Below, one piece after another: positions 3,254-58,786 of a stretch of DNA of 64,000 nt (positions are counted from its first letter, which is position 1; every line of letters begins with the position of its first letter). A program made the position numbers and the translations under genes. The stretch comes from Minisyncoccota bacterium. GTDB taxonomy: Bacteria; Patescibacteriota; Minisyncoccia; Phycocordibacterales; JAACPR01. The stretch lies in NCBI GenBank assembly GCA_041674225.1, contig JBAYWG010000001.1, positions 169,401 through 233,400 of the forward strand. Reading direction: 5' to 3'. The notes below the pieces were generated by a model that ran no database searches, had not been told where the DNA came from, and saw only the letters and a list, made by a program, of their open reading frames with translations.

Positions 3254-3811
3254 CTATATATTTTTCACAAACATTTTTTCTAACTCCTCCAAAACTTCAG
3301 GAAGTTTTTTCCAACCAGCAGATCCATTCAAGTGAACTCCGTTCGGGATAATAATAGGTTCTTTGTCTAATTTGTCTCCAAGTTTATAAGCATTTTCTAC
3401 AACAACCAAAGTGTCATTATCTCCATGAATTATCGACACGTCTTTTAGATTTGATTTTATAATTTCAAAATCAAAGTCTTTATAAAAATTTTCAGTAAGC
3501 GGGTTATTTGATTTTTCAAATCTACCTGCAACCAGAACTGCTCCCGGAAAACTTTTATCAGAATTTTGCAGATAATTTAAAATAGCAGCAACACCTAAAC
3601 TATGCCCAACAAAATATATTTCATCATTTTTATTTAAACCCACATGTCTAGAAATTTCATTAACCCACTCTGAACATATCGGAGCCTCTGGATTTGGCAT
3701 AGCCAAAGAACAGGCGTATACATCTTTTAATTTTAATTCCCCCATAAGCCAAGGAATCCAACTACTGTTTGGGCAACTATTAAAACCATGAATTATAAAT
3801 ACTTTTTTCAT
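3254..3811 (-). CDS. small alpha/beta serine hydrolase (YdeN/RBBP9-like)
   Basis: 185 aa with KVFIIHGF at the N-terminus, the nucleophile elbow GHSLG and IHGDNDTLV. The size and motif order match the small Ser-hydrolase family. Confidence 0.75.
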   Translation of the reverse strand: MKKVFIIHGFNSCPNSSWIPWLMGELKLKDVYACSLAMPNPEAPICSEWVNEISRHVGLNKNDEIYFVGHSLGVAAILNYLQNSDKSFPGAVLVAGRFEKSNNPLTENFYKDFDFEIIKSNLKDVSIIHGDNDTLVVVENAYKLGDKLDKEPIIIPNGVHLNGSAGWKKLPEVLEELEKMFVKNI

Positions 3812-3872
3812 AAAAATAGTTTAACACAAACAAAAAAAGCCTTGAAACAAGACCCCTTTTGTTTTTTATAAA

Positions 3873-4013
3873 TTACTTTCCGTTAAGAGCCTTTTTTCGA
3901 GCTGCTGGTTTTAATGCTTTGATTCTTAGCATTTCCTTCTTTTTTGCAATTCGTGTTGGGCCTCTCTTAATAAAGCTTGTCTTTGCTTTGATTGATCCTG
4001 ATCTTTTTGCCAT
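3873..4013 (-). CDS. small highly basic protein (46 aa), family unassigned
   Basis: Below the ORF-track size cutoff. ATG 4013..4011 to TAA 3875..3873 gives MAKRSGSIKAKTSFIKRGPTRIAKKKEMLRIKALKPAARKKALNGK. The composition is ribosomal-protein-like, but I cannot match it to a named family. Confidence 0.35.
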   Translation of the reverse strand: MAKRSGSIKAKTSFIKRGPTRIAKKKEMLRIKALKPAARKKALNGK

Positions 4014-4059
4014 AGGTAAATGAGTATATATTAAATTTAATTAAAATGCCACAGCGGGT

Positions 4060-11824: not shown

Positions 11825-12460
11825 TTATTTATTCCCCGCTAAAGCAACTTTAATTCCAAGCGCGATAAGCACAGCGCCAGTAACTCTTTCTACGTAGTGT
11901 TGTACTTTTCCAATTTTGGTTCGTATAAGTGAGTTTGAGAAAAAGAGAGCAACTAAAACAAACCAAACAAAGGTAATCAGCATCATTTCTATTCCATAAG
12001 CGAACTGAATTATTTTAGGAGTTGAGAGATCAATTATTTGAGTGAACAATGCTAAAAAGAAAAGTGTAGCTTTTGGATTGAGTGCGTTTGTAAGAAATCC
12101 AATTTTAAATGATGACCAAAGACTTATATCTTGCTTTGCGACATTATCTTTTGTTTCAGTGTGCACCGCAGGCTTTGCTCTCAGAGATTTGTACCCGATG
12201 TAAATCAAATATCCCGCACCGATAAATTTAACAATATTAAAAATGATAACTGATTTAGAAATAACAAATCCAATTCCCAAAAGTGAATACGCCACATGCA
12301 CCAAAATTCCCACAGCAATTCCAATCGCTGTGTAAATTCCAGTCTTTCGAGAATAAATAATACTGTTACGAGCAACCATCGCAAAATCTGGACCTGGACT
12401 TACAACAGCCAAAAGATGCACTATTGCTACGGTTATAAACTGCGCAAGAAATATTGTCAT
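11825..12460 (-). CDS. LysE/RhtB-family amino-acid exporter
   Basis: 211 aa with six hydrophobic segments. The N-terminal VSPGPDFAMV motif is typical of the LysE family. Confidence 0.75.
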   Translation of the reverse strand: MTIFLAQFITVAIVHLLAVVSPGPDFAMVARNSIIYSRKTGIYTAIGIAVGILVHVAYSLLGIGFVISKSVIIFNIVKFIGAGYLIYIGYKSLRAKPAVHTETKDNVAKQDISLWSSFKIGFLTNALNPKATLFFLALFTQIIDLSTPKIIQFAYGIEMMLITFVWFVLVALFFSNSLIRTKIGKVQHYVERVTGAVLIALGIKVALAGNK

Positions 12461-12481: not shown

Positions 12482-14371
12482 TTACTCCTCCAAACCAAAA
12501 TATCTTGGAAACAATACCGGTGTACTATCCGCCGTTATACCATCTCTTGTAATAGGAAGTTGTTGAGAAGTCGCGGGCCATGGCAGGGGAAGTTTTCCAA
12601 CAAAAGGTTTATCTCCAAAAAGCACATCCGCCACACCTTGCCCTTCACTACCAGGAAGCCACGCCGCCACAAGCGCATCCCAAGAAGAAATTTCGTTCGC
12701 AATAAGCAAAGGTCGTCCTGAAATTATTACTACCAAAACTTTTTCAGAAACTGCTTGAAGTTTTTTGATCGCCATCAAATCTTCAGAATATAAAATTGGA
12801 TATTCTCTATCGCCCACTCCTTCTGCATAAGGTTGCTCACCTACAAATGCAATTCCTAAATCAGCTTTCGTACCATCATCCACAAAATTACCTAGTGTTC
12901 GATAATCCACTCTGGTATTTTCGCTTACAGCATTTTTTATTCCATCTATTATAGAAGTCGCTCCTGGCAAATCATTTCCATTTATTCCTTGCCAATTTAC
13001 AGTCCAGGCTCCTGATTGATTTCCAATATTATTTGCAGCACTTCCAACAATACGAATATGTTTTATATTTTTATCAATTGGTAAAACTGAATTATCATTT
13101 TTTAACAGAACCAAAGATTGCGACACGGCATCTCTTGCAAGCGCACGATGTTCTACTGAACCAACAACTTCAGTTGAAATTTTATTTTCATTTTTATCAA
13201 AAAGACCTAGCTCAAATTTTGCATATAAAATTCTCCGCACAGCATCATCTATTCTGTCTTCGGAAACTTCTCCAACACGCACAGCTTTGGAAACATTTTT
13301 AACAAAAGGTTTGTAATCAAAAGGCAACATCACCATATCTACTCCAGCATTAATAGCCGTAATCACAGATCTATAATCACTCCCAGGAATTTCATAAACA
13401 CCATACCAATCAGAAACAACAAAACCTTTAAATCCAAGTTCTTTTTTTAGGACATCAGTAATCAAATATTCACTCGCAGACAATTTAGTTTCACCCCAAG
13501 TATTCAATCCAATCATTACACTTTTCACACCAGCATCTACAACGGCTCTAAATGGAACTAGATATTCTTCTCTAAGTAATTCTTCGTCAGCCAAAGTAGC
13601 ACCTTGATCTATTTTGTAATTTTCATTTGAAGAAGTGTCCCAAAGCATTCCACCAAGTCCAACAAAATGTTTTGCTGTACCTATCACAGAATTTCCCTGT
13701 AATCCTTTTATATATGCAACACCTAAATCAGATACGAGAGCAGGATCATCAGAAAAAGTTTCGTAAACTCTTCCCCAACGAATGTCGCGAGGCATATCAA
13801 GTGTTGGTGAAAAACTCCAATGCACATTTGTTGCTAAAAGTTCTTTTGCAGTAGCAGATGCAATATCTTCGACAAGCTTTGGATCCCTAGTCGCGCCAAG
13901 TCCAATAGAGTGCGGAAAAACTGTAGCTCCAGGAATATTTGAATGCCCATGAATGGCATCAACTCCATAAATTATCGGAATACCGAGACGACTATTTTTG
14001 GATTCATTTATAAAATCTGAAACCATTTTGTTCCAACCTTCAGGGGTATTATTTTCTGGATTCGCTCCAGCGCCACTTAGAAGTGCACCGAGTCCGTACA
14101 AAGAAACATCTTTCATTTCTTCAACACTTTTATTTTCAACAAGAGCCATCTGTCCAATTTTTTCTTCAAGTGTCATATAAGACAAAAGATCTTCAACACG
14201 TTCTTCTACAGAATTATTTGGATTTAAATACAAAGATTCTTTTGTTGGATTTCGTACAATCTTTGTTTCTTCATTCCGAAATAAAAATGATAAAAAATAA
14301 AAAATTCCCACCAAAATAATTAAAAATAAAAATAAGTACACAAGTTTAGCGTTCACTTTAAAATCATCCAT
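12482..14371 (-). CDS. glycoside hydrolase family 3 (beta-glucosidase / beta-hexosaminidase-like), membrane-anchored
   Basis: N-terminal TM segment, then GIPIIYGVDAIHGH, KHFVGLGG and the GFVVSDW nucleophile motif, plus a C-terminal GH3 domain. Confidence 0.85.
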   Translation of the reverse strand: MDDFKVNAKLVYLFLFLIILVGIFYFLSFLFRNEETKIVRNPTKESLYLNPNNSVEERVEDLLSYMTLEEKIGQMALVENKSVEEMKDVSLYGLGALLSGAGANPENNTPEGWNKMVSDFINESKNSRLGIPIIYGVDAIHGHSNIPGATVFPHSIGLGATRDPKLVEDIASATAKELLATNVHWSFSPTLDMPRDIRWGRVYETFSDDPALVSDLGVAYIKGLQGNSVIGTAKHFVGLGGMLWDTSSNENYKIDQGATLADEELLREEYLVPFRAVVDAGVKSVMIGLNTWGETKLSASEYLITDVLKKELGFKGFVVSDWYGVYEIPGSDYRSVITAINAGVDMVMLPFDYKPFVKNVSKAVRVGEVSEDRIDDAVRRILYAKFELGLFDKNENKISTEVVGSVEHRALARDAVSQSLVLLKNDNSVLPIDKNIKHIRIVGSAANNIGNQSGAWTVNWQGINGNDLPGATSIIDGIKNAVSENTRVDYRTLGNFVDDGTKADLGIAFVGEQPYAEGVGDREYPILYSEDLMAIKKLQAVSEKVLVVIISGRPLLIANEISSWDALVAAWLPGSEGQGVADVLFGDKPFVGKLPLPWPATSQQLPITRDGITADSTPVLFPRYFGLEE

Positions 14372-35525: not shown

Positions 35526-35604
35526 ATCATTGATATTAATACTAAAAAATAAAAAACACCAATTAAAGTCTTCAGGGCCTAATCTAGCTCGACCCTATTG
35601 GTCG

Positions 35605-36858
35605 CTAGGAATATATTTTAGGTATATCTTCCCAAGAAGTTGTAAACTCGCCGGAAATAAATTTAGTGTTTGGTGCCCATTTTTTATCAACACCTTCAGA
35701 CGCTAGCCTCACTGTACCCTTTCCATAAATCAAATTCAGCGAATCAATTGATTTCATCAGTTTCTCAGTATCAAAAGTTTTTTGTCCAAATAAATCTTCG
35801 CTCTGACATGAATCTATTGGAACAAAATCTCCAAGCATGACGCCCGTCTTTTTATATTCAAAACCATCTTGATACATTGATTTCAAAATTTTATTTGCAA
35901 TTTTTGTTAGTTCAATCGTGTCCGACACAGGTTTGTCTAAAACAATTGATTCCGTTTGATAATACTGGGCAGTGTTAGTAAAACGATTTGTCGAAATTGT
36001 GATACTCAAAAATTTTGTTGCACTTCCTTCTTCTCTCATTTGTTGAGCACAGTTTGAGACATGATGTGACACCGACTGAAATAAAGTTTTAAAGTCTGAT
36101 ACATTTTTCCCGAAAGAACGCGAACTAATAATCGATTTTCGAGATTCTTTTTGAGCATCCATTAAAAGGCACGACTCACCTTTTAATTCTCTAGAAATCC
36201 GCAATAAACCAATTCCAAAGTTTTTTTGAATCCACTGATCATTTTGTTTAGTTAAATCAAGTGCCGAGTTGATCCCAAATTTTGATAGCGACAAAGAAAT
36301 CCTCGAACCAATTCCCCAAATCTTTCCAACAGAAACATCTTCCAAAATTTTATTGAGATTATTATCTTTTTCGATTTGATATACGACAGTTTTGTTATCC
36401 TTTGAAATTCTATTTGCGAGTTTAGCTAAAGTTTTTGTTGGAGCTATTCCAATTGAAACTGGTATTCCTGTGTATTGTCTTATTTTTGCGTGCAACTCCT
36501 CACAAAATTTTTTAGGATCACTCACGTCAGTCAAATCAATAAAAGCCTCATCGATAGAATATACTTCCATTTCATTTGAAAATTCTTGAATAATATTCAT
36601 TACCCGGTCTGACATATCTCTATATAATTTAAAATTGGTTGAGAAGATAGCGATTTTTGACATGTCATAATTATTTTTCATTTTAAAATGAGGAATACCC
36701 ATCGGGATCCCCATGTCTTTTACTTCTTGTGAACGAGAAATCACACAACCATCATTACTCGAAAGAATTAGTGTGGGCTTATTTTGTATTGAAGGATTAA
36801 AAACCCTCTCACACGATACAAAGAAATTATTACAATCAACAAGCGCGTAGGTTTTCAT
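35605..36858 (-). CDS. umuC: Y-family translesion DNA polymerase, UmuC-like
   Basis: YALVDCNNFFVSCERVFNPSIQNKPTLILSSNDGCVISRSQEVKDMGIPMG closely parallels the UmuC N-terminus. Confidence 0.85.
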   Translation of the reverse strand: MKTYALVDCNNFFVSCERVFNPSIQNKPTLILSSNDGCVISRSQEVKDMGIPMGIPHFKMKNNYDMSKIAIFSTNFKLYRDMSDRVMNIIQEFSNEMEVYSIDEAFIDLTDVSDPKKFCEELHAKIRQYTGIPVSIGIAPTKTLAKLANRISKDNKTVVYQIEKDNNLNKILEDVSVGKIWGIGSRISLSLSKFGINSALDLTKQNDQWIQKNFGIGLLRISRELKGESCLLMDAQKESRKSIISSRSFGKNVSDFKTLFQSVSHHVSNCAQQMREEGSATKFLSITISTNRFTNTAQYYQTESIVLDKPVSDTIELTKIANKILKSMYQDGFEYKKTGVMLGDFVPIDSCQSEDLFGQKTFDTEKLMKSIDSLNLIYGKGTVRLASEGVDKKWAPNTKFISGEFTTSWEDIPKIYS

Positions 36859-36859
36859 T

Positions 36860-37153
36860 TTAAATTAGTTTATGCACGACATGACAAACAACACCCCAAA
36901 CTTCTTGATCTTCTTGCTGTGAAAATTTTTGAATTACAAATTCTCCGTCTAGATTTACTAAAACAATACTTCCAATTTTTGGCGACACCGAACGATCTAT
37001 CACCAGTACATCATTTTTTGCAATAAGAAGTTCTGGCAAATCAAAACCTTCATATCTAAAATAAAAAGTTGCGTGTGGATGAAGTGTAACAAGATTATAT
37101 AAATCCAACCTATCGTGACTAACATTTTCTGCAGATTGAAATAACGGTGTCAT
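36860..37153 (-). CDS. UmuD'-like S24-fold protein lacking the N-terminal arm and the Ser nucleophile
   Basis: SAENVSHDRLDLYNLVTLHPHATFYFRYEGFDL aligns with UmuD [34 protein letters not shown]. GDSM is replaced by GFDL. The Lys is retained in VIQKF. Confidence 0.65.
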   Translation of the reverse strand: MTPLFQSAENVSHDRLDLYNLVTLHPHATFYFRYEGFDLPELLIAKNDVLVIDRSVSPKIGSIVLVNLDGEFVIQKFSQQEDQEVWGVVCHVVHKLI

Positions 37154-37199
37154 CCGTATATTGTATCTTTTATTTTTCTAGTCTGTCAACTTTTCTAGT
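37154..37199 (-). promoter_or_regulatory. strong promoter positioned for a leaderless umuD'-umuC mRNA, with flanking direct repeats
   Basis: Minus strand reads ACTAGAAAAG-TTGACA-G-ACTAGAAAAATAAAAGA-TACAAT-ATACGG-ATG. The -35 is at 37189-37184 and the -10 at 37165-37160, 6 nt before the start codon. ACTAGAAAA occurs twice. Confidence 0.55.
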
Positions 37200-37207
37200 T
37201 TTAAGTT

Positions 37208-37618
37208 TTAAACGACCTTACTCAAATCTCCCTCTATTAAAGTCGGATTAAAGCCAATAATCTCATCTTTTAGAATTCCTTCTGGAATATTAGCAAACAA
37301 AAATATTTTTTTATTTAATTTAAACGCATCATACATTTCCAAAAAAGTTGCGCCTCCAATGTAGTTTTGAATTCCATGTTTTTCAAAATTCAAAACAAGC
37401 ACTGCATCCTGATTATTTATCACACTCTCACTGTGTTTAATCATCGAAGATTTCCATTTTGAGTGTTCATCAAATCCAAGATCTCTGTATCTAGCCTCTG
37501 TCCCTGGATCATCAAAGCAATTCGGAAGTGTTACAACATGACCAGCGTCTTCTAGTTCATTTTTTATTTCAGGTATTTTATCGTAAAAGACCTTGCTGCA
37601 AATTAAAAATAATTTCAT
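37208..37618 (-). CDS. nucleoside 2-deoxyribosyltransferase-like Rossmann protein
   Basis: The start is moved to ATG 37618 (MKLFLICSKVFY). GGATFLEMYDAFKLNKKIFLF resembles the NDT-family sGt.fE.G.A motif. The longer ORF overlaps the upstream gene by 143 nt. Confidence 0.5.
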   Translation of the reverse strand: MKLFLICSKVFYDKIPEIKNELEDAGHVVTLPNCFDDPGTEARYRDLGFDEHSKWKSSMIKHSESVINNQDAVLVLNFEKHGIQNYIGGATFLEMYDAFKLNKKIFLFANIPEGILKDEIIGFNPTLIEGDLSKVV

Positions 37619-37625
37619 ACTAGAA

Positions 37626-38132
37626 TTATAACCCCCTACTATCATATGCCCAATGTAACACAGCTTGCCTTTGCCTAGCACGACAACTCTCGTCACCTTT
37701 CCTGCAATTTTTAACGATTTGCGCAATGTGTCGACTAATCGCCTTCCATCTCTTGATTTGTCTTGCATCCTCTTTTGGAATCCGACGTCCTAAATAATAT
37801 CTACAATACCATTGAAACCAACCTCGCGGATCTTCGTTATAAATCCAACCTTTCTTTTGCCATTCTTCCAAAGACTGCGATGCTTTTATACCAAAATAAT
37901 TTTTATCTTTCTCGTATTTTCCAGATACAGACAGGCTCGCTCCCTTAAACCAATCTTTCGGAAATTCATCATGCTCTCCATCAAAATATTTTCCTCCAAA
38001 TATTCCCAGTTTCAACATTTGCTTCGGTGTCAGATCCGGTTTGAATTCAGGATCAAAATTCTTCCCCTCTTTTTCAGTGAGTGTGTATTTGTAGTTTTTT
38101 TGATATCTATCGTTTACTTTTACTTCTTTCAC
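37626..38132 (-). CDS. conserved hypothetical protein
   Basis: 168 aa with a GTG start. The motifs FGGKYF and PRGWFQWYCRYYLGRR...DARQIKRWK look like a conserved family that I cannot name. Confidence 0.5.
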   Translation of the reverse strand: MKEVKVNDRYQKNYKYTLTEKEGKNFDPEFKPDLTPKQMLKLGIFGGKYFDGEHDEFPKDWFKGASLSVSGKYEKDKNYFGIKASQSLEEWQKKGWIYNEDPRGWFQWYCRYYLGRRIPKEDARQIKRWKAISRHIAQIVKNCRKGDESCRARQRQAVLHWAYDSRGL

Positions 38133-38135
38133 ACT

Positions 38136-38186
38136 AAAAATATACCACCTCCCAAAACAAAAAACACCTCAATATTGAGGTGTTTT
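38136..38186 (-). repeat. repeated terminator + extended -10 promoter module, copy A
   Basis: Plus strand: AAAAATATACCACCTCCCAAAACAAAAAACACCTCAATATTGAGGTGTTTT. On the minus strand the hairpin is followed by a T-run and then TGGTATATT 6 nt before the GTG. Confidence 0.7.
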
Positions 38187-38198
38187 GGGAACTAATCC

Positions 38199-39095
38199 TT
38201 ATAAAGATTCAATCATTTTCCCATAAGCATCAAAAGACTTTTCCGCATTAACACGATCTTTACCTCCCTTTTTATAGTCCTCAACATTATCAATCAATCC
38301 TGATAAAAATGAATTTGTGATCAATCTAGCCAATGAAAGTTTGTTATTACTCTCCTCTTCATAAGAGTCAATAATATGTTGGAAGTGATTTGGAAAATCT
38401 CTAATATATCTAGAAAACTCTCTTGCAGTTTCACCATATTCGGAATTACCAAAATCGATAAAACCAGATATTTTTTTATCTTTTATTAAAACATTTTCGT
38501 GATGAGCATCGTTGTGAATAAATTGAAAAACAGACTGATCCAAAGTTGTGTCAAAAATACTTTTTGCTTTCTGAGCTAAATCTATCATATTTTTTGGCAA
38601 AGACTCATCAGAAATAATTAAATGATAATCTGCTAACACTTCTAAATGAAGTCCTGTAGAGTCGTCAACCAAGACACCCATTTCATTTGCGTTTTGTTTA
38701 CTAATTATTTTACCGATTTGGGCATGAAAATATCCAAGATTTCGCAAAATATCAATTCTTTCTTCTTCTGATAAATCTTTCCAAACATTACGCAGAGTAT
38801 CACCCTCAATAAATGAATATCCATACATGTCTGGATCTTGGGAAACAAAAATAACTTCAGGAACAGGAATTGTTAAATTTGATTCATATAATTTCTGTGC
38901 AACTTTTGCTTCAATAACTAAACTGTTTTGAGGAGTAAATTCTTGAATTTCTTTTTCCACTTTTACAATACATTTTTTACCAGTCTTAGTTTCCAAATAA
39001 TATGCGTTGTTAACAAACCCTGACGCTTTTAATTCAAATTTAGTAATTTTCTCTTTTATTATTTTTTCAATATCACCCCTTAAGTCTTCTGACAT
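38199..39095 (-). CDS. aminoglycoside/choline-kinase-type phosphotransferase (APH family)
   Basis: Brenner motif FIHNDAHHENVLI and IDFGNSEYG. Confidence 0.75.
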   Translation of the reverse strand: MSEDLRGDIEKIIKEKITKFELKASGFVNNAYYLETKTGKKCIVKVEKEIQEFTPQNSLVIEAKVAQKLYESNLTIPVPEVIFVSQDPDMYGYSFIEGDTLRNVWKDLSEEERIDILRNLGYFHAQIGKIISKQNANEMGVLVDDSTGLHLEVLADYHLIISDESLPKNMIDLAQKAKSIFDTTLDQSVFQFIHNDAHHENVLIKDKKISGFIDFGNSEYGETAREFSRYIRDFPNHFQHIIDSYEEESNNKLSLARLITNSFLSGLIDNVEDYKKGGKDRVNAEKSFDAYGKMIESL

Positions 39096-39098
39096 ACA

Positions 39099-39146
39099 AA
39101 AAATATAGCACTTCCCAAAACAAAAAACACCTCAATCTTGAGGTGT
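39099..39146 (-). repeat. repeated terminator + extended -10 promoter module, copy B
   Basis: Plus strand: AAAAATATAGCACTTCCCAAAACAAAAAACACCTCAATCTTGAGGTGT. The minus strand gives TGCTATATT 6 nt before the ATG at 39095. Confidence 0.7.
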
Positions 39147-39170
39147 CGATAAGTTAAGTTGTTGTATATA

Positions 39171-39950
39171 TTAAATTTTCTTTTTCCAAAACACTCTACT
39201 ATTCACAGGCTCACCTTCTTCTCTTGATAATGAAATTTCATTTGTTTCAACTCTTTCAAAATCAATACTTTCTGGAACCGTCTCATACAAAAGCTTGGCT
39301 TTTGTATCCTTCATTAAACCCGCATATTGTTCTAAAATTGTTTCAGAAGTCGGCATAAGAAACACATCAACGCCAATTTCTTTTGCAGCTGACTTAACAT
39401 CTTCCAACAATTCCTTTTGATAATTTGGAATACTACCGGCACCAAAGCACTTATTACATTTTACATATTCTGTTTTAGTAACATTCACACCCCCTTTTCC
39501 ATTGCACATCTCACACTTATCACGACTTACTTCTTTAAGTTTCTTATTCTTGGTTTTTTGTAATAGATCAGATTGAATCTCCTCGATAAGCCAAGCCTTT
39601 TCAAATACACCTAAATCGCTTACAACATTTCTTTGACTTATTTTCATCCAAGAGTAAACCTCCAGAGGTTTATCTGTTCTGAAATGTGAACTCGTATGCA
39701 TATAATCTAACTCGGCGTCACCTAATTCATAAACATTAATCATTTCTTCTAACGAAGCTTCTTTGATTATTATTATTCTATCTCCTTCACCTCTTTTAAC
39801 ATAAGGCAAAATATCCGAAGAAAATGCTTTTAATCCATCTTTCAAAATACCATTATTTAATCTTTTTACAGTCTCATTAATATCTTCTATACTTTCAATA
39901 TCATTCTCTATTTCATCATCAAAAATAGTTTGAGGAAATTTTTCTTTCAT
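39171..39950 (-). CDS. hypothetical protein with a DnaJ-type CxxCxGxG zinc-finger pair
   Basis: The start is taken at ATG 39950 (MKEKFPQ). CEMCNGKGG...CNKCFGAGS is the zinc-finger pair. Confidence 0.5.
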   Translation of the reverse strand: MKEKFPQTIFDDEIENDIESIEDINETVKRLNNGILKDGLKAFSSDILPYVKRGEGDRIIIIKEASLEEMINVYELGDAELDYMHTSSHFRTDKPLEVYSWMKISQRNVVSDLGVFEKAWLIEEIQSDLLQKTKNKKLKEVSRDKCEMCNGKGGVNVTKTEYVKCNKCFGAGSIPNYQKELLEDVKSAAKEIGVDVFLMPTSETILEQYAGLMKDTKAKLLYETVPESIDFERVETNEISLSREEGEPVNSRVFWKKKI

Positions 39951-39954
39951 ATAC

Positions 39955-40009
39955 AAAAATTCTACCACTCTCCTAAAACAAAAAACACCTCAATCTTGAG
40001 GTGTTTTTT
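39955..40009 (-). repeat. repeated terminator + extended -10 promoter module, copy C
   Basis: Plus strand: AAAAATTCTACCACTCTCCTAAAACAAAAAACACCTCAATCTTGAGGTGTTTTTT. The hairpin starts 6 nt after the tRNA-Asp 3' end. The minus strand gives TGGTAGAAT 8 nt before the ATG at 39950. Confidence 0.7.
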
Positions 40010-40015
40010 GAACTG

Positions 40016-40089
40016 CGCGAGTGATGGGACTCGAACCCACGACCTTCCGCGTGACAGGCGGACGCTCTAACCAGCTGAGCTACACCCGC
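40016..40089 (-). tRNA. tRNA-Asp (GTC)
   Basis: Hand fold: GCGGGTG TA GCTC AGCTGGTTA GAGC G TCCGC CTGTCAC GCGGA AGGTC GTGGG TTCGAGT CCCAT CACTCGC G. Confidence 0.9.
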
Positions 40090-40170
40090 AAATGTGTAAG
40101 CAAATTACATAACAAATGCGTTTCGCTACTTTACCAAATAAAGCTCTGTTTATCAAATACCCCTAACGTG

Positions 40171-40244
40171 TCCCGAGGGACGGAATTGAACCGTCGACCT
40201 TAGCTTTATGAGTGCTACGCTCTAACCAACTGAGCTACCCCGGG
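40171..40244 (-). tRNA. tRNA with CAT anticodon (elongator Met, or Ile2 if lysidine-modified)
   Basis: Hand fold: CCCGGGG TA GCTC AGTTGGTTA GAGC G TAGCA CTCATAA AGCTA AGGTC GACGG TTCAATT CCGTC CCTCGGG A. The 1:72 pair is Watson-Crick, so it is not an initiator. Confidence 0.85.
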
Positions 40245-55474: not shown

Positions 55475-57982
55475 CTAGCTTTTTAGAGTCCACCCATCAT
55501 TCAACATTTCTTCTGCTTTTTTCCATTTTACCTCTTTTTCTTCACCGTCTTTTTCAATTTTTACAATATCATTCCTACCAAATTTTGGAGATGTGCTTTG
55601 ATTATTTTCAGAAGTTTGATCTTGGTTAGAAATCATTTGAGCTTTTTTCATTGTCTCTTTCAATTTTTCTTCTTCTTTTTGAAAAGCTCCAGCTCCAATG
55701 TGAGGTAAAAGATTAATTATATTCTCATCAATACCAGCAAGCATTTCATTAAACACTCGCAAACCTTCTTTTTTATACTCAATTAAAGGGTCTCTTTGAC
55801 CATAGGCTCTCAGACCTACACTTGAACGCAAATAACTCATCAGTTCCAAATGATCTATCCAAAAATTATCAATAGATTGCAACATCAATCTTCTCAATGC
55901 AGCGATTAATTCTTCCTCATTTAAAATTGCCTTTTTTTCTTCAACAATTTTTGAAACTTTTTCATCCAAACTAGCAAGTCTTTTCAATTCTGACTCTATA
56001 TAAGGAACATCTCCCAGAAGTAGTTTTCTTCTTCTTTCATAAATAGACTTTCTTTGTGTATTTAAAACGTTATCGAATTCTAAAATATGTTTTCGTGAAT
56101 CAAAGTTAAAACCTTCAATTTTTGTTTGAGCAGATTCTAGAGATTTTGTGATAATTTTATTTTCAATAGGTTGATCTTCTGGCAGGCCTAGTTTACTCAT
56201 CAAAGTTTTTACACCTGAAGAAGCAAAAATTCTCATTAAGGAATCATCCAAAGAAACAAAGAATTGTGTCTCTCCTGGATCTCCCTGACGTCCAGAACGA
56301 CCTCGTAACTGATTATCGATTCTGCGAGCGTCGTGTCTTTCTGTACCAACTACAAATAATCCCCCCAAAGATTTTATCTCTTTATAAGCATCTTCTTCAT
56401 ATGGTGCACCTCCCAAAATAATATCTACTCCACGACCAGCCATGTTTGTGGCAATAGTCACAGAACCCTTTCGTCCAGCTTGTGCGATTATTTGACCTTC
56501 TTGTTCGTGATTTTTTGCATTCAAAACTTGATGAGGAATTCCTTCTGAAGCAAGAAAAGTTGAGAGTAGTTCGTTTGTTTCAATAGAAACAGTACCAATC
56601 AAAACCGGTTGACCTGTTGAGTGGATTTCTTTTACTTTTTTTGCAATCGCTTTAAACTTTCCTATTTGAGTTTGAAAAATTAAATCATCTCTATCCAAAC
56701 GAATAGTTGGCGAGTTTGGAGGAACTGTTACAACATCCAGATTGTAAACTTTCAAAAACTCCTCTCCGTTAGTTTTTGCTGTACCAGACATACCAGAAAG
56801 TTTTTCATACATTCTAAAATAATTTTGATATGTGATAGAAGCGTAAGTTCTAGACTCTTGTTGAATCTTTACACCCTCCTTCGCCTCGATAGCTTGATGA
56901 AGTCCTTCAGACCATCTTCGTCCTGGTTGCATTCTTCCAGTAAATTCATCCACAATAACAATTTCATTATCTTTCACCACATATTGTTTATCTTTTTTGA
57001 AAAGAGATTTAGCTCGAACAGCAGTTTCCAAATGATGCACATATTTAACACCTTTTTCTGTATAGATATTTTCAACTCCAAGTGCTTTCTCTGCTTTATC
57101 AATTCCAGAATCATTTATCGAAACGGCTTTTAATTTTTCATCAACTGTAAAATCCTCATCTTCTTTTAACTGTTCTGCAATCTGTGAAAAAATACCATAA
57201 AGGTCTTGTGAATCCGCCGCCGGAGCAGAAATAATAAGCGGAGTTCTGGCTTCATCAATAAGAATTGAATCTATTTCATCAATAATTGCGAAGTTATGGC
57301 CTCTTTGTCTTAAAGAATTTTCATTATATTCGATGTTGTCTCTCAAATAATCAAAACCAAATTCACTGTTTGTTCCATATGTAATGTCCGCGGCATAAGC
57401 TTCTTTTCTTGTAACTGGTCGCAAAAATTCGTGAACTATTTTAAATGAACCTTCCTCATCTCTTTCTTCATCCAAATTTTGATGTGCTGAGTCATAAATA
57501 AAAGAACCAGCTTGAGCAATCACACCCACACTCAATCCAAGGAAGTCATGAATTTGTCCCATCCAAACAGCATCTCTTTGTGAAAGATAATCGTTTACCG
57601 TCACAACATGAACTCCTTTTCCACTAAGTGCATTTAAATAAGAAGGCAGAGTCGCCATCAAAGTTTTTCCTTCACCAGTACGCATTTCTGCTAAGTTACC
57701 ATCATTCAAAATCATTCCTCCAATAAGTTGAACATCGAAGTGTCTTTTTTCTGAAACTCTTTTCGAAGCTTCGCGCACAACAGCAAAAGCTTCTGGCAAA
57801 ATATCATCTAAAGTTGAACCTGATTGCAATCTGTTTTTAAATTCTTCAGTTTTAGATCTTAATTCTGCGTCGCTTAGTTTTTGAAGGTTTTCTTCAAAAG
57901 AATTAATAAGAGGAACACGCGCTTCGTAGCGTTTTAGCATCTTTTCGTTTTCGTCTTTAAACAGACCCGATAAAAATCCCAT
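55475..57982 (-). CDS. secA: preprotein translocase ATPase SecA
   Basis: Walker A MRTGEGKTL, DEAD-like IIDEIDSILIDEARTPLIIS, 835 aa. Confidence 0.95.
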   Translation of the reverse strand: MGFLSGLFKDENEKMLKRYEARVPLINSFEENLQKLSDAELRSKTEEFKNRLQSGSTLDDILPEAFAVVREASKRVSEKRHFDVQLIGGMILNDGNLAEMRTGEGKTLMATLPSYLNALSGKGVHVVTVNDYLSQRDAVWMGQIHDFLGLSVGVIAQAGSFIYDSAHQNLDEERDEEGSFKIVHEFLRPVTRKEAYAADITYGTNSEFGFDYLRDNIEYNENSLRQRGHNFAIIDEIDSILIDEARTPLIISAPAADSQDLYGIFSQIAEQLKEDEDFTVDEKLKAVSINDSGIDKAEKALGVENIYTEKGVKYVHHLETAVRAKSLFKKDKQYVVKDNEIVIVDEFTGRMQPGRRWSEGLHQAIEAKEGVKIQQESRTYASITYQNYFRMYEKLSGMSGTAKTNGEEFLKVYNLDVVTVPPNSPTIRLDRDDLIFQTQIGKFKAIAKKVKEIHSTGQPVLIGTVSIETNELLSTFLASEGIPHQVLNAKNHEQEGQIIAQAGRKGSVTIATNMAGRGVDIILGGAPYEEDAYKEIKSLGGLFVVGTERHDARRIDNQLRGRSGRQGDPGETQFFVSLDDSLMRIFASSGVKTLMSKLGLPEDQPIENKIITKSLESAQTKIEGFNFDSRKHILEFDNVLNTQRKSIYERRRKLLLGDVPYIESELKRLASLDEKVSKIVEEKKAILNEEELIAALRRLMLQSIDNFWIDHLELMSYLRSSVGLRAYGQRDPLIEYKKEGLRVFNEMLAGIDENIINLLPHIGAGAFQKEEEKLKETMKKAQMISNQDQTSENNQSTSPKFGRNDIVKIEKDGEEKEVKWKKAEEMLNDGWTLKS

Positions 57983-58000
57983 AGGAGAGCATCATAACAT

Positions 58001-58034
58001 AAAACACCTGCCACGGCGACATGTCAGGTGTTTT
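58001..58034 (-). terminator. hairpin after the H1-like gene, upstream of secA
   Basis: AAAACACCTG-14 nt-CAGGTGTTTT. On the minus strand it is followed by TGT-TATGAT 8 nt before the secA ATG. Confidence 0.45.
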
Positions 58035-58059
58035 ATGTATTTGAGATTGAAAGAATCGA

Positions 58060-58215
58060 TTATCGTTTCTTTGTTGTCTTCTTTTTAGCAGCTGGTCGTT
58101 TTGTTGCTTTTTTAGCTGTCTTTTTTACTGTCTTCTTAACAGCTTTTTTTACAACTTTTTTAACAGCCTTTTTCTTTGGAGCTGCTTTTTTTGTTGCTTT
58201 TTTCTTTGTTGCCAT
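58060..58215 (-). CDS. histone-H1-like lysine/alanine-rich small protein (51 aa)
   Basis: Below the ORF-track cutoff. ATG 58215..58213 to TAA 58062..58060 gives MATKKKATKKAAPKKKAVKKVVKKAVKKTVKKTAKKATKRPAAKKKTTKKR. Confidence 0.6.
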   Translation of the reverse strand: MATKKKATKKAAPKKKAVKKVVKKAVKKTVKKTAKKATKRPAAKKKTTKKR

Positions 58216-58469
58216 TTGTCTTGATTAATTATTGTATTTAAATAATACTCGACCTCTATGTATTAATTATCGGACACATGAAAACTACTTACAATATTTT
58301 TTTTACAAAATGTGTGGATAAACTTTTTTAAAAAAATAAAAAAATATTTTTTTATTTTTGTTTTTTAAATTAAAAAACTTTTTTATTTTTGTTTTTGTGA
58401 AAATTTTATTTTTATTTCGAAGAAAATTTAATTTTATTTTTTTAAAAAAACTACGGTAAAATTAAGTAG

Positions 58470-58597
58470 ATAAAATAAAAAACTCTCAGCAAGCTGAGAG
58501 TTTTTTATTTCACAATCCGAAACGGCCGGCAGGTACGAGCTCCAAAATGAATATCTAATGTGAGTGTAGCTGTCGGCCATTTCGAATAACGAATCTA
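58470..58597 (-). ncRNA. candidate small structured RNA (unknown family)
   Basis: Minus strand reads TTGTGG (58631-58626), a 16-nt spacer, then TATAAT (58609-58604). Downstream is a 17-bp stem with one mismatch (58516-58532 pairing with 58570-58586) enclosing ~37 nt, followed by the 58477-58506 terminator. Confidence 0.3.
58477..58506. terminator. bidirectional terminator hairpin
   Basis: AAAAAACTCTCAG-CAAG-CTGAGAGTTTTTT. Confidence 0.65.
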
Positions 58598-58680
58598 GGA
58601 CAAATTATAGCGGATAGAAATAAATCCACAACAGCCAATTTAGTGTTTATTTAAAAAATATTTATTCAAATTTTAAAATG

Positions 58681-58706
58681 AAAAGACCCACTTTCGTGGG
58701 TCTTTT
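58681..58706. terminator. terminator after the O-antigen-ligase-like gene
   Basis: AAAAGACCCAC-TTTC-GTGGGTCTTTT. Confidence 0.65.
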
Positions 58707-58786
58707 CACAGATATTCATTTTTGGCGCTGCGTACTGCAACACTCACAATTACTAATATAGCATATAAATCAGATAATGCAATAGC

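Follow-up and report, generated by a model that had tools for sequence, protein, structure and literature searches.

Promoter-early stem-loops (PeSLs) of T4-type phages are composite promoter/stem-loop repeats bounded by the stop codon of one gene and the start codon of its downstream neighbour (Arbiol et al. 2010, PMC2839356; Comeau et al. 2014, PMC4122927). Dispersed in about 50 copies, they occupy hyperplastic regions ahead of ORFans, where they give rise to indels, replacements and mini-circles; the mini-circles, and the promoter and terminator activities, have been demonstrated (PMC2839356; PMC4122927). Tycheposons of Prochlorococcus are islands next to tRNA genes that arise from repeated integration, with partial tRNA repeats lying between the inserts (bioRxiv 10.1101/2020.12.28.424599). 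We describe here a locus in the metagenome-assembled genome of an uncultured bacterium of the Candidate Phyla Radiation (CPR; Paceibacterota), found in a 64-kb stretch of Minisyncoccota contig JBAYWG010000001.1 that we call the window: behind a tRNA-Asp gene, three copies of a short module, each with the sequence of an intrinsic terminator followed by an extended -10 promoter, precede three single genes.

The CPR, or Patescibacteria, have tiny genomes with few recognised mobile elements, and how their strains acquire genes of their own is poorly understood. The locus would offer a concrete and testable route of gene acquisition: a terminator/promoter scaffold beside a tRNA gene, with one open reading frame (ORF) per slot and a content that differs from genome to genome. 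Our reading, to which we give a probability of about 70%, is that the module derives from the flank of tRNA-Asp, insulates and expresses single-gene cassettes, and serves as the point at which they recombine.

A repeated module behind tRNA-Asp

The first-pass annotation of the window had placed three near-identical elements beside two tRNA genes, and had read each of them as a terminator hairpin and T-run followed by an extended -10 box 6-8 nt before the next start codon. Elements, layout and position are as it described them (Table 1). The 30-nt core of the module, AAAACAAAAAACACCTCAATMTTGAGGTGT, occurs without mismatch at exactly three sites in the window, 38154-38183, 39117-39146 and 39975-40004; no fourth site appears even when up to 3 mismatches are allowed, and 0 are expected from shuffled sequence. 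A repeat finder returned the copies as a 61-nt family of three members (identity 100, 89 and 67%), and a profile hidden Markov model (HMM) built from 8 module copies recovered the same three, M1-M3, and these only, each with E about 1e-17, the next independent match having E > 0.1. ARAGORN places tRNA-Asp(GTC) and tRNA-Met(CAT) directly upstream. An assembly made independently from another sequencing run (L002) matches this arrangement at 100% identity across 4377 nt, which rules out misassembly as the source of the triplication.

Aligned on the coding strand, which is the minus strand for every copy, the modules begin with the hairpin, ACACCTCAA-(GA/TA)-TTGAGGTGT, and the T-run TTTTTTGTTTT, and continue with (G/A)GGA(G)(A/G)G, TG(G/C)TA(T/G)A(T/A)T, 6-8 nt and ATG or GTG. 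Hairpin, U-run and the promoter-like TGnTAnnnT are packed into the 51-64 nt between a stop codon or tRNA end and the following start codon, the hairpin itself lying 10-51 nt past the tRNA end or stop codon. Its predicted folding energies, -17 to -23 kcal/mol, correspond to z of about -4 against shuffles in two of the three copies, and a terminator scan, which yielded only 11 candidates over 18 kb, recovered M1 and M2. No copy has a -35 box or a Shine-Dalgarno (SD) sequence. An SD role for the GGGAGG in the module was considered and rejected, this motif lying ~15 nt from the start codon and SD-like motifs occurring in only 1 of 56 genes; inclusion of the shared first codons, M-K-E, in the repeat was likewise rejected as not significant, ATGAAA starts being frequent in this genome.

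One feature that the first-pass annotation had treated as peculiar to the module, the closeness of the -10 box to the start codon, turns out not to be. Across the window, 27 of 56 genes have a TANNNT box whose end lies 5-9 nt ahead of the start codon; in the control window the number is 9. The distances peak sharply at 6 nt, and 13 genes carry the TGn extension. Since so many genes share the spacing it is not module-specific, and leaderless transcription from extended -10 promoters appears, from these signals, to be the rule in this genome. Other terminators in the window end in the same TTTTTTGTTTT tail, all of them with different stems, and compact terminator-plus-promoter junctions with other hairpins lie upstream of 3254-3811 and 55475-57982. 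The architecture of the module is generic for the genome; the sequence of its hairpin is not that of the genome's generic terminator.

Over the region, Rfam recognises tRNAs only, its sub-threshold matches over the module (rimP leader, SpF41) falling far under the gathering scores. Exact-pattern scans of IMG/VR, of one genome per GTDB species and of JGI metagenomes, which miss true relatives with differing loops, returned only single look-alike terminators, with the promoter part absent in all. The carriers are Polaribacter, Macrococcus, Clostridium and a viral contig of 51% GC, and these look-alike hairpins in unrelated taxa are convergent. Polaribacter-like low-GC contigs (L008, L004, L007, L013) have in common a convergent terminator, CACCTCA(A)TTTTGAGGTGTTTTTTGTTT, with similar flanks; L008 carries it twice, at 11897-11912 and 12696-12711, 800 nt apart, and there it may be a separate repeated element of an unrelated lineage.

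The locus in related lineages

With the Y-family polymerase and homologues of gene A as protein anchors, we found contigs of five related lineages. The data thus comprise the 64-kb window, from a genome no smaller than 476 kb, plus about 170 kb from relatives. At 75-91% nucleotide identity to the window, the relatives share a conserved backbone that runs from ligase, gatCA and sigma/anti-sigma genes to tRNA-Met and tRNA-Asp and, after an interruption, to gene A; further interruptions precede umuD and dinB, and then the ABC transporter and a giant protein. Every relative contig that reaches tRNA-Asp (L020, L023, L026, L032) has an orthologous hairpin and T-run right after it. The profile HMM confines module copies in the ~170 kb to the tRNA-Asp locus, where the related lineages have 1-3 of them.

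What follows the copies differs from lineage to lineage. L020/L021 (dinB 81% identical in amino acids) has one copy with gene A next to it, and neither gene C nor the APH gene; BLASTN homology between L020 and the window stops at 39972 and restarts at 38143, so that gene C, the APH gene and two modules constitute a 1.8-kb insertion relative to L020. In L026 (dinB 80%), three copies, of which two are 97% and 74% identical to the first, are arranged around a 118-aa protein, a 207-aa protein resembling S-adenosylmethionine (SAM) methyltransferases, and YdjM. L032, found via gene A (86% nucleotide identity), has an intact copy before a split Ser-hydrolase gene and a degenerate one before a sulfatase gene. 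L023 (dinB 79%) has one copy, CACCTC-AAC-GAGGTGTTTTTTGTTGGAGTGGGTGATAATATTTTTGT-ATG, before a NUDIX gene and a second, reduced to T-run and promoter, before a 284-aa gene; its 167-aa protein is not gene A by BLASTP. In L028 (dinB 76%) one copy follows a protein gene, and a remnant lies beyond an inverted 156-aa gene. The split gene of L032 (7968-8536), which is tRNA-proximal and divided into ORFs of 132 and 55 aa, is a probable pseudogene; the window has an intact Ser_hydrolase gene (3254-3811) behind one of the compact terminator-plus-promoter junctions with a different hairpin.

All-against-all BLASTP across the six lineages found gene A, umuD and dinB in common, and zero cassette proteins. 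Almost all cassette proteins are singleton clusters at 90% identity, and homology breaks off at the cassette edges within a few nt of the start codon and just past the stop codon. What stays constant is the module, as a scaffold; each lineage has its own ORFs between the copies.

The idea of an accessory hotspot built of cassettes, put forward in the first-pass annotation, is upheld by the 1.8-kb insertion relative to L020 and by the unrelated genes behind the same module in L026, L032 and L023, with two amendments. First, of the three small genes that it took to be accessory, gene C and the APH gene are so and gene A is not. Gene C has 8 relatives in 5.8e9 proteins (39-42% identity, ~390 aa), forms a singleton 90% cluster, has no phage match, and is absent in L020, L023, L026, L028 and L032; matches of this CxxCxGxG protein to zinc fingers are weak. 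The APH gene, correctly labelled, is also a singleton 90% cluster, with 168 representative clusters at E<=1e-3 among 1.84e9 (best, 49% identity), and is absent from the loci of all relatives compared. Gene A, encoding a PRGWFQWY protein without a family match, belongs with umuD and dinB to the backbone: it has at least 8000 homologues at 65-75% identity across the CPR, and occupies the same place before umuD, at 89-90% amino acid identity, in L018, L020, L026, L028 and L032. Second, the variable zone at the tRNA side is real for the tRNA-Asp array but is not the sole one, for the gene A/umuD and dinB/ABC junctions vary without a module.

The module was probably founded by the copy in the 3' flank of tRNA-Asp. 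This tRNA-proximal copy opens with AGTTCAAAAAAC, the trailer of the tRNA. In L026 (copies b and c) and L032 (b), internal copies open, right behind the cassette stop codon, with TTAGTTC.AACAAC-GTCCACGAGCTCGCGC-AGTTCAAAAAAC, a pseudo tRNA-Asp 3' end whose middle segment matches the genuine 3' end (GTCCCATCACTCGCGC) over 11 contiguous nt, plus GTCC. In all three of these copies CTCGCGCAGTT, the 3' strand of the acceptor stem of tRNA-Asp together with its trailer, has been kept beside a diverged T-arm, and the same diverged arm is found in internal copies of different genomes. It follows from this match in the internal copies that the end of the tRNA gene was either the template of the repeat unit or its partner in recombination. 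The window itself has no second tRNA-3'-end segment within 3 mismatches, and only AGTTC and CAACAAC remnants: M2 keeps CAACAACTT, M1 keeps TTAGTTCC.AAAAC, and 39170-39147, upstream of M2, holds a CAACAAC remnant of the relatives' left arm.

Between genomes, module copies are 85-93% identical in nucleotide sequence, compared with 80-86% for backbone genes. The window copies are 84% alike among themselves and 83-89% to copies elsewhere; the pair L026a and L026b reaches 98%. The promoter part comes in two subtypes, GGAGAGTGGTA and GGAAGTG[AC]TATATTTTTTGT (GGAAGTG[AC]TATATT), distributed without regard to genome or slot position, a pattern that fits what exchange between copies and between genomes would produce, although the informative sites are few.

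Table 1. Features of the locus in the window, in minus-strand order; an ABC transporter gene follows the last entry
Feature	Position	Strand	Evidence and remarks
tRNA-Met(CAT)	40170-40244	-	first of the tRNA pair upstream of the array; ARAGORN; Rfam tRNA 66.7 bits; same position in L020, L023, L032
tRNA-Asp(GTC)	40015-40089	-	ARAGORN; Rfam 71.4 bits
Module M3 (tRNA-Asp to gene C)	39951-40014	-	trailer AGTTCAAAAA 40014-40005; hairpin 40004-39985; T-run 39984-39975; predicted fold -22.2 kcal/mol, z = -4.05; nhmmer E=2.5e-17
M3 candidate promoter	39967-39959	-	extended -10 TGGTAGAAT; 8 nt to ATG 39950
Gene C	39171-39950	-	259 aa; two CxxCxGxG motifs; very rare; cassette gene
Module M2 (gene C to APH)	39096-39146	-	hairpin 39146-39127; T-run 39126-39117; nhmmer E=8e-17
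M2 candidate promoter	39110-39102	-	extended -10 TGCTATATT; 6 nt to ATG 39095
APH-family kinase	38199-39095	-	298 aa; divergent subfamily; PF01636 E=1e-17
Module M1 (APH to gene A)	38133-38193	-	AGTTCCCAAA 38193-38184; hairpin 38183-38164; T-run 38163-38154; predicted fold -23.4 kcal/mol, z = -3.96; nhmmer E=3.5e-17
M1 candidate promoter	38147-38139	-	extended -10 TGGTATATT; 6 nt to GTG 38132
Gene A	37626-38132	-	168 aa; motif PRGWFQWYCRYYLGRR; conserved backbone gene
136-aa gene	37208-37618	-	variable insertion without module; own TATAAT 6 nt before ATG, inside last gene A codons
umuD-like S24 peptidase	36860-37153	-	Pfam; with dinB (35605-37153 together) the conserved distal anchor of the variable zone; syntenic in all relatives
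Y-family polymerase (dinB)	35605-36858	-	Pfam; see umuD

The 136-aa gene at the gene A/umuD junction is present in the window and in L020 (82% amino acid identity), and absent from the closer relatives L019 (dinB 93%) and L018 (86%), where gene A abuts umuD. The label "NDT-like" given to it by the first-pass annotation found no confirmation: it has no Pfam match even at E<=1 and no PDB match, and a single-sequence AlphaFold model has pLDDT 35. The umuD promoter region next to it, AACTTAAAACTAGAAAAGTTGACAGACTAGAAAAATAAAAGATACAAT (37160-37207, minus strand), is kept nearly base for base in all relatives; in it a direct repeat, ACTAGAAAA, flanks a TTGACA box on both sides, and may be the operator of an SOS-type umuDC operon. 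A second variable slot lies at the dinB/ABC-transporter junction (35526-35604), where the window has no gene. L019 and L028 have a 154/155-aa membrane protein there (67% identical), L020 has RelB/ParE, L026 and L033 have an Lnb_N protein, and L028 also has two proteins of ~485 aa.

Elsewhere, the window encodes type IV pilins and a prepilin peptidase. An 804-nt gap between genes (57983-58786, minus strand) contains several strong hairpin/T-run terminators, very AT-rich repeats and a small basic ORF rich in Lys and Ala (MATKKKATKKAAPKKKAVKK...); the gap at 3812-4059 contains a second small basic ORF.

Proposed cassette exchange and its alternatives

We propose that the module began as the 3' flank of tRNA-Asp and is a composite of three parts. 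The first, an intrinsic terminator made of a 7-9-bp stem (ACACCTC(AA)/(TT)GAGGTGT) and a U-run, would end transcription of the tRNA operon or of the cassette gene before it. A putative extended -10 promoter, TGnTAnnnT, without a -35 box, makes up the second part, and the third is a fixed spacing of 6-8 nt to the start codon, such that the next gene should be expressed as a leaderless mRNA; gene C, the APH kinase gene and gene A would then be three insulated monocistronic units. Cassettes would be gained, lost and replaced through recombination inside the 60-95-nt module, the likeliest route being homologous recombination of incoming DNA, or of excised circles, bearing a module copy. New cassettes would enter beside the tRNA gene, and the older copies of the module would degenerate over time. 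That the module ends and starts transcription, that the mRNAs are leaderless, and how recombination proceeds are all our interpretation of the sequence. Homologous recombination, which has also been proposed for PeSLs, is favoured because none of the window genes tested, and no entry in the gene tables of the relatives' loci, was found to have an integrase, recombinase or transposase domain.

That same result counts against the main rival to exchange by homologous recombination, namely site-specific integration at tRNA-Asp. Here the module with its pseudo tRNA 3' end would be an attachment (att) site, and a tyrosine or serine recombinase, supplied from another part of the genome or by a helper element and acting in trans on the tRNA-end segment, would insert integrase-less single-gene circles to build up the tandem array. 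Such a process would suit the presence of CTCGCGCAGTT, after a shared non-tRNA arm, in the internal copies of L026 and L032, and the precise start of the arrays where the tRNA gene ends; the signature described for tycheposon islands, moreover, consists of partial tRNA repeats between one integration and the next (bioRxiv 10.1101/2020.12.28.424599). It sits less well with the internal copies of the window, which have no pseudo-tRNA segment, and with the ~75 nt of shared identity that run on through terminator and promoter and exceed a typical core site. We regard site-specific integration as possible, if on balance doubtful.

The second rival, pure differential loss, dispenses with mobility altogether: local duplication of the tRNA-Asp flank would have produced a long ancestral array, and the present differences would be deletions between direct repeats, followed by decay. 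DNA lying between direct repeats of 60-95 nt is indeed easily deleted, some copies are degenerate (L032b, L023b and the L028 remnant), and the window copies, at 84% identity, are old. Six lineages without a common cassette gene would, however, require an ancestor with at least 10 cassettes, all differentially lost, and cassette genes that are singletons or nearly unique in 5.8e9 proteins are not what such an ancestor leads one to expect. Nor does it predict the 98% identity of L026a and L026b, which points to a recent event, or promoter subtypes that are incongruent with position. This makes differential loss unlikely as the whole explanation.

The palindrome could instead be the operator of a dimeric DNA-binding regulator of the three genes, the T-run and the position being incidental. 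An operator would explain both its perfect 9+9 palindromic symmetry, with the centre ~40 nt ahead of the presumed start, and the retention of its stem sequence across genomes without covariation. Yet the half-sites are 3-6 nt apart in different copies, and a variable loop on a fixed 7-bp stem core is more readily explained by an RNA hairpin than by a dimer operator; the stem has just two substitutions, both C to U opposite G, which preserve pairing in the sense-strand transcript only; the element always stands behind a stop codon or tRNA end and ahead of a U-run; and downstream genes that are unrelated in every genome offer no logic for a regulon. An operator is, on these grounds, very improbable. 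Least probable by far, and largely refuted for the available sequence, is a generic terminator, the outcome that the first-pass annotation had named as fatal to its claim, or a genome-wide small repeat of the repetitive extragenic palindrome (REP) or miniature inverted-repeat transposable element (MITE) kind, with no link to gene content: although the TTTTTTGTTTT T-run and compact terminator-promoter junctions recur in the window and convergent look-alike hairpins exist in unrelated bacteria, stems elsewhere in the window differ, neither a search at <=3 mismatches nor the profile finds another copy in the 64 kb, and the relatives' copies are all at one locus with a content that differs per genome.

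Several points nevertheless tell against exchange of insulated cassettes at the module. Its terminator and promoter activities are deduced from sequence. The stem shows no covariation (0 compensatory changes; 91.8% of cells paired, not above shuffles), so the case for the hairpin is one of thermodynamics and position. Gene gain and differential loss from a larger ancestral array look alike in the present data. Because the window copies are no closer to one another than copies from different genomes are, recent local duplication is unsupported. The leaderless mRNA of gene A would open with GTG, which is less favourable than ATG. Variation at the gene A/umuD and dinB/ABC junctions, where there is no module, means that the module is not required for plasticity. 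Finally, with ~64 kb analysed out of at least 476 kb, there is room for dispersed copies elsewhere in the genome, and the exact-pattern scans, having missed real relatives, say little about the range of the family.

If the module is indeed a recombination site, the principle embodied by PeSLs, that regulatory repeats act as points of gene exchange, would reach cellular chromosomes; it would also be tied to leaderless expression, the promoter-to-ATG spacing forcing cassette boundaries to be precise to the ORF. A broader proposal, which we advance only tentatively, is that CPR bacteria possess an integrase-less platform for single-gene cassettes, in which the module combines terminator, leaderless promoter and recombination site, and cassettes carrying one module copy circulate among strains. 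Any ORF arriving between two copies would then be insulated and expressed at once, an integron-like function built from ordinary transcription signals, and the module might find use as a compact, portable insulation-and-expression unit for organisms with leaderless mRNAs.

Comparison with known systems

Taken singly, the parts of the module are familiar. A G+C-rich stem-loop directly before a U-tract at the end of a transcription unit is the form of an intrinsic terminator, and TGnTAnnnT with the start codon 5-9 nt downstream, as in all three copies, that of a leaderless extended -10 promoter. Our literature searches found no description of arrays of this kind in the CPR, which does not of itself prove their absence. 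REP and MITE repeats are dispersed in many copies; here there are three adjacent copies in 64 kb, and copies in relatives only at the tRNA-Asp locus.

The array resembles an integron in its tandem, co-oriented and mostly single-gene cassettes, in a repeated element with an imperfect palindrome, and in a content that differs among relatives; the arrangement also fits insertion at the proximal end with decay of older copies. It differs in that the repeat is a 20-nt palindrome plus T-run without attC R/L boxes (R''-L''/L'-R') or a GTTRRRY core, and in that each cassette would have its own promoter and terminator, whereas integron cassettes are promoterless and rely on Pc. Neither IntI nor attI was found, the tested window genes and the neighbours' gene tables containing no integrase domain.

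With tycheposons the locus shares variable DNA that starts at the 3' end of a tRNA gene, in a small streamlined genome with few classical mobile elements. Partial tRNA 3'-end copies separate successive inserts as they do in tycheposons, in L026 and L032 only, the internal copies of the window having lost the tRNA-like segment. Unlike those islands, each insert consists of one gene, 0.4-0.9 kb long; in the cassettes and sampled flanks neither an integrase nor a replication module was found, and the repeated unit runs on through the terminator and promoter.

PeSLs appear to be the closest functional analogue. Like them, the module seems to unite a short intergenic stem-loop terminator and a promoter in one repeat that extends from a stop codon to the next start codon; its copies, too, cluster in a hyperplastic region by ORFan or variable genes, and indels and replacements between relatives end in the repeats. 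The module is an analogue and not a member of the group, having no sequence homology to PeSLs and, in some copies, a pseudo tRNA 3' end. PeSLs have a sigma-70 early promoter with -35 and -10 boxes and a Shine-Dalgarno sequence, the module an extended -10 box with neither -35 nor SD and, apparently, leaderless starts; their ~50 copies are dispersed, those of the module anchored at a single tRNA locus; and their activities have been demonstrated, where those of the module are predicted. PeSLs belong to T4-type phages and the module to a cellular CPR chromosome, and it is this probable PeSL-like or integron-like scaffolding of cassettes in such a chromosome that would be new.

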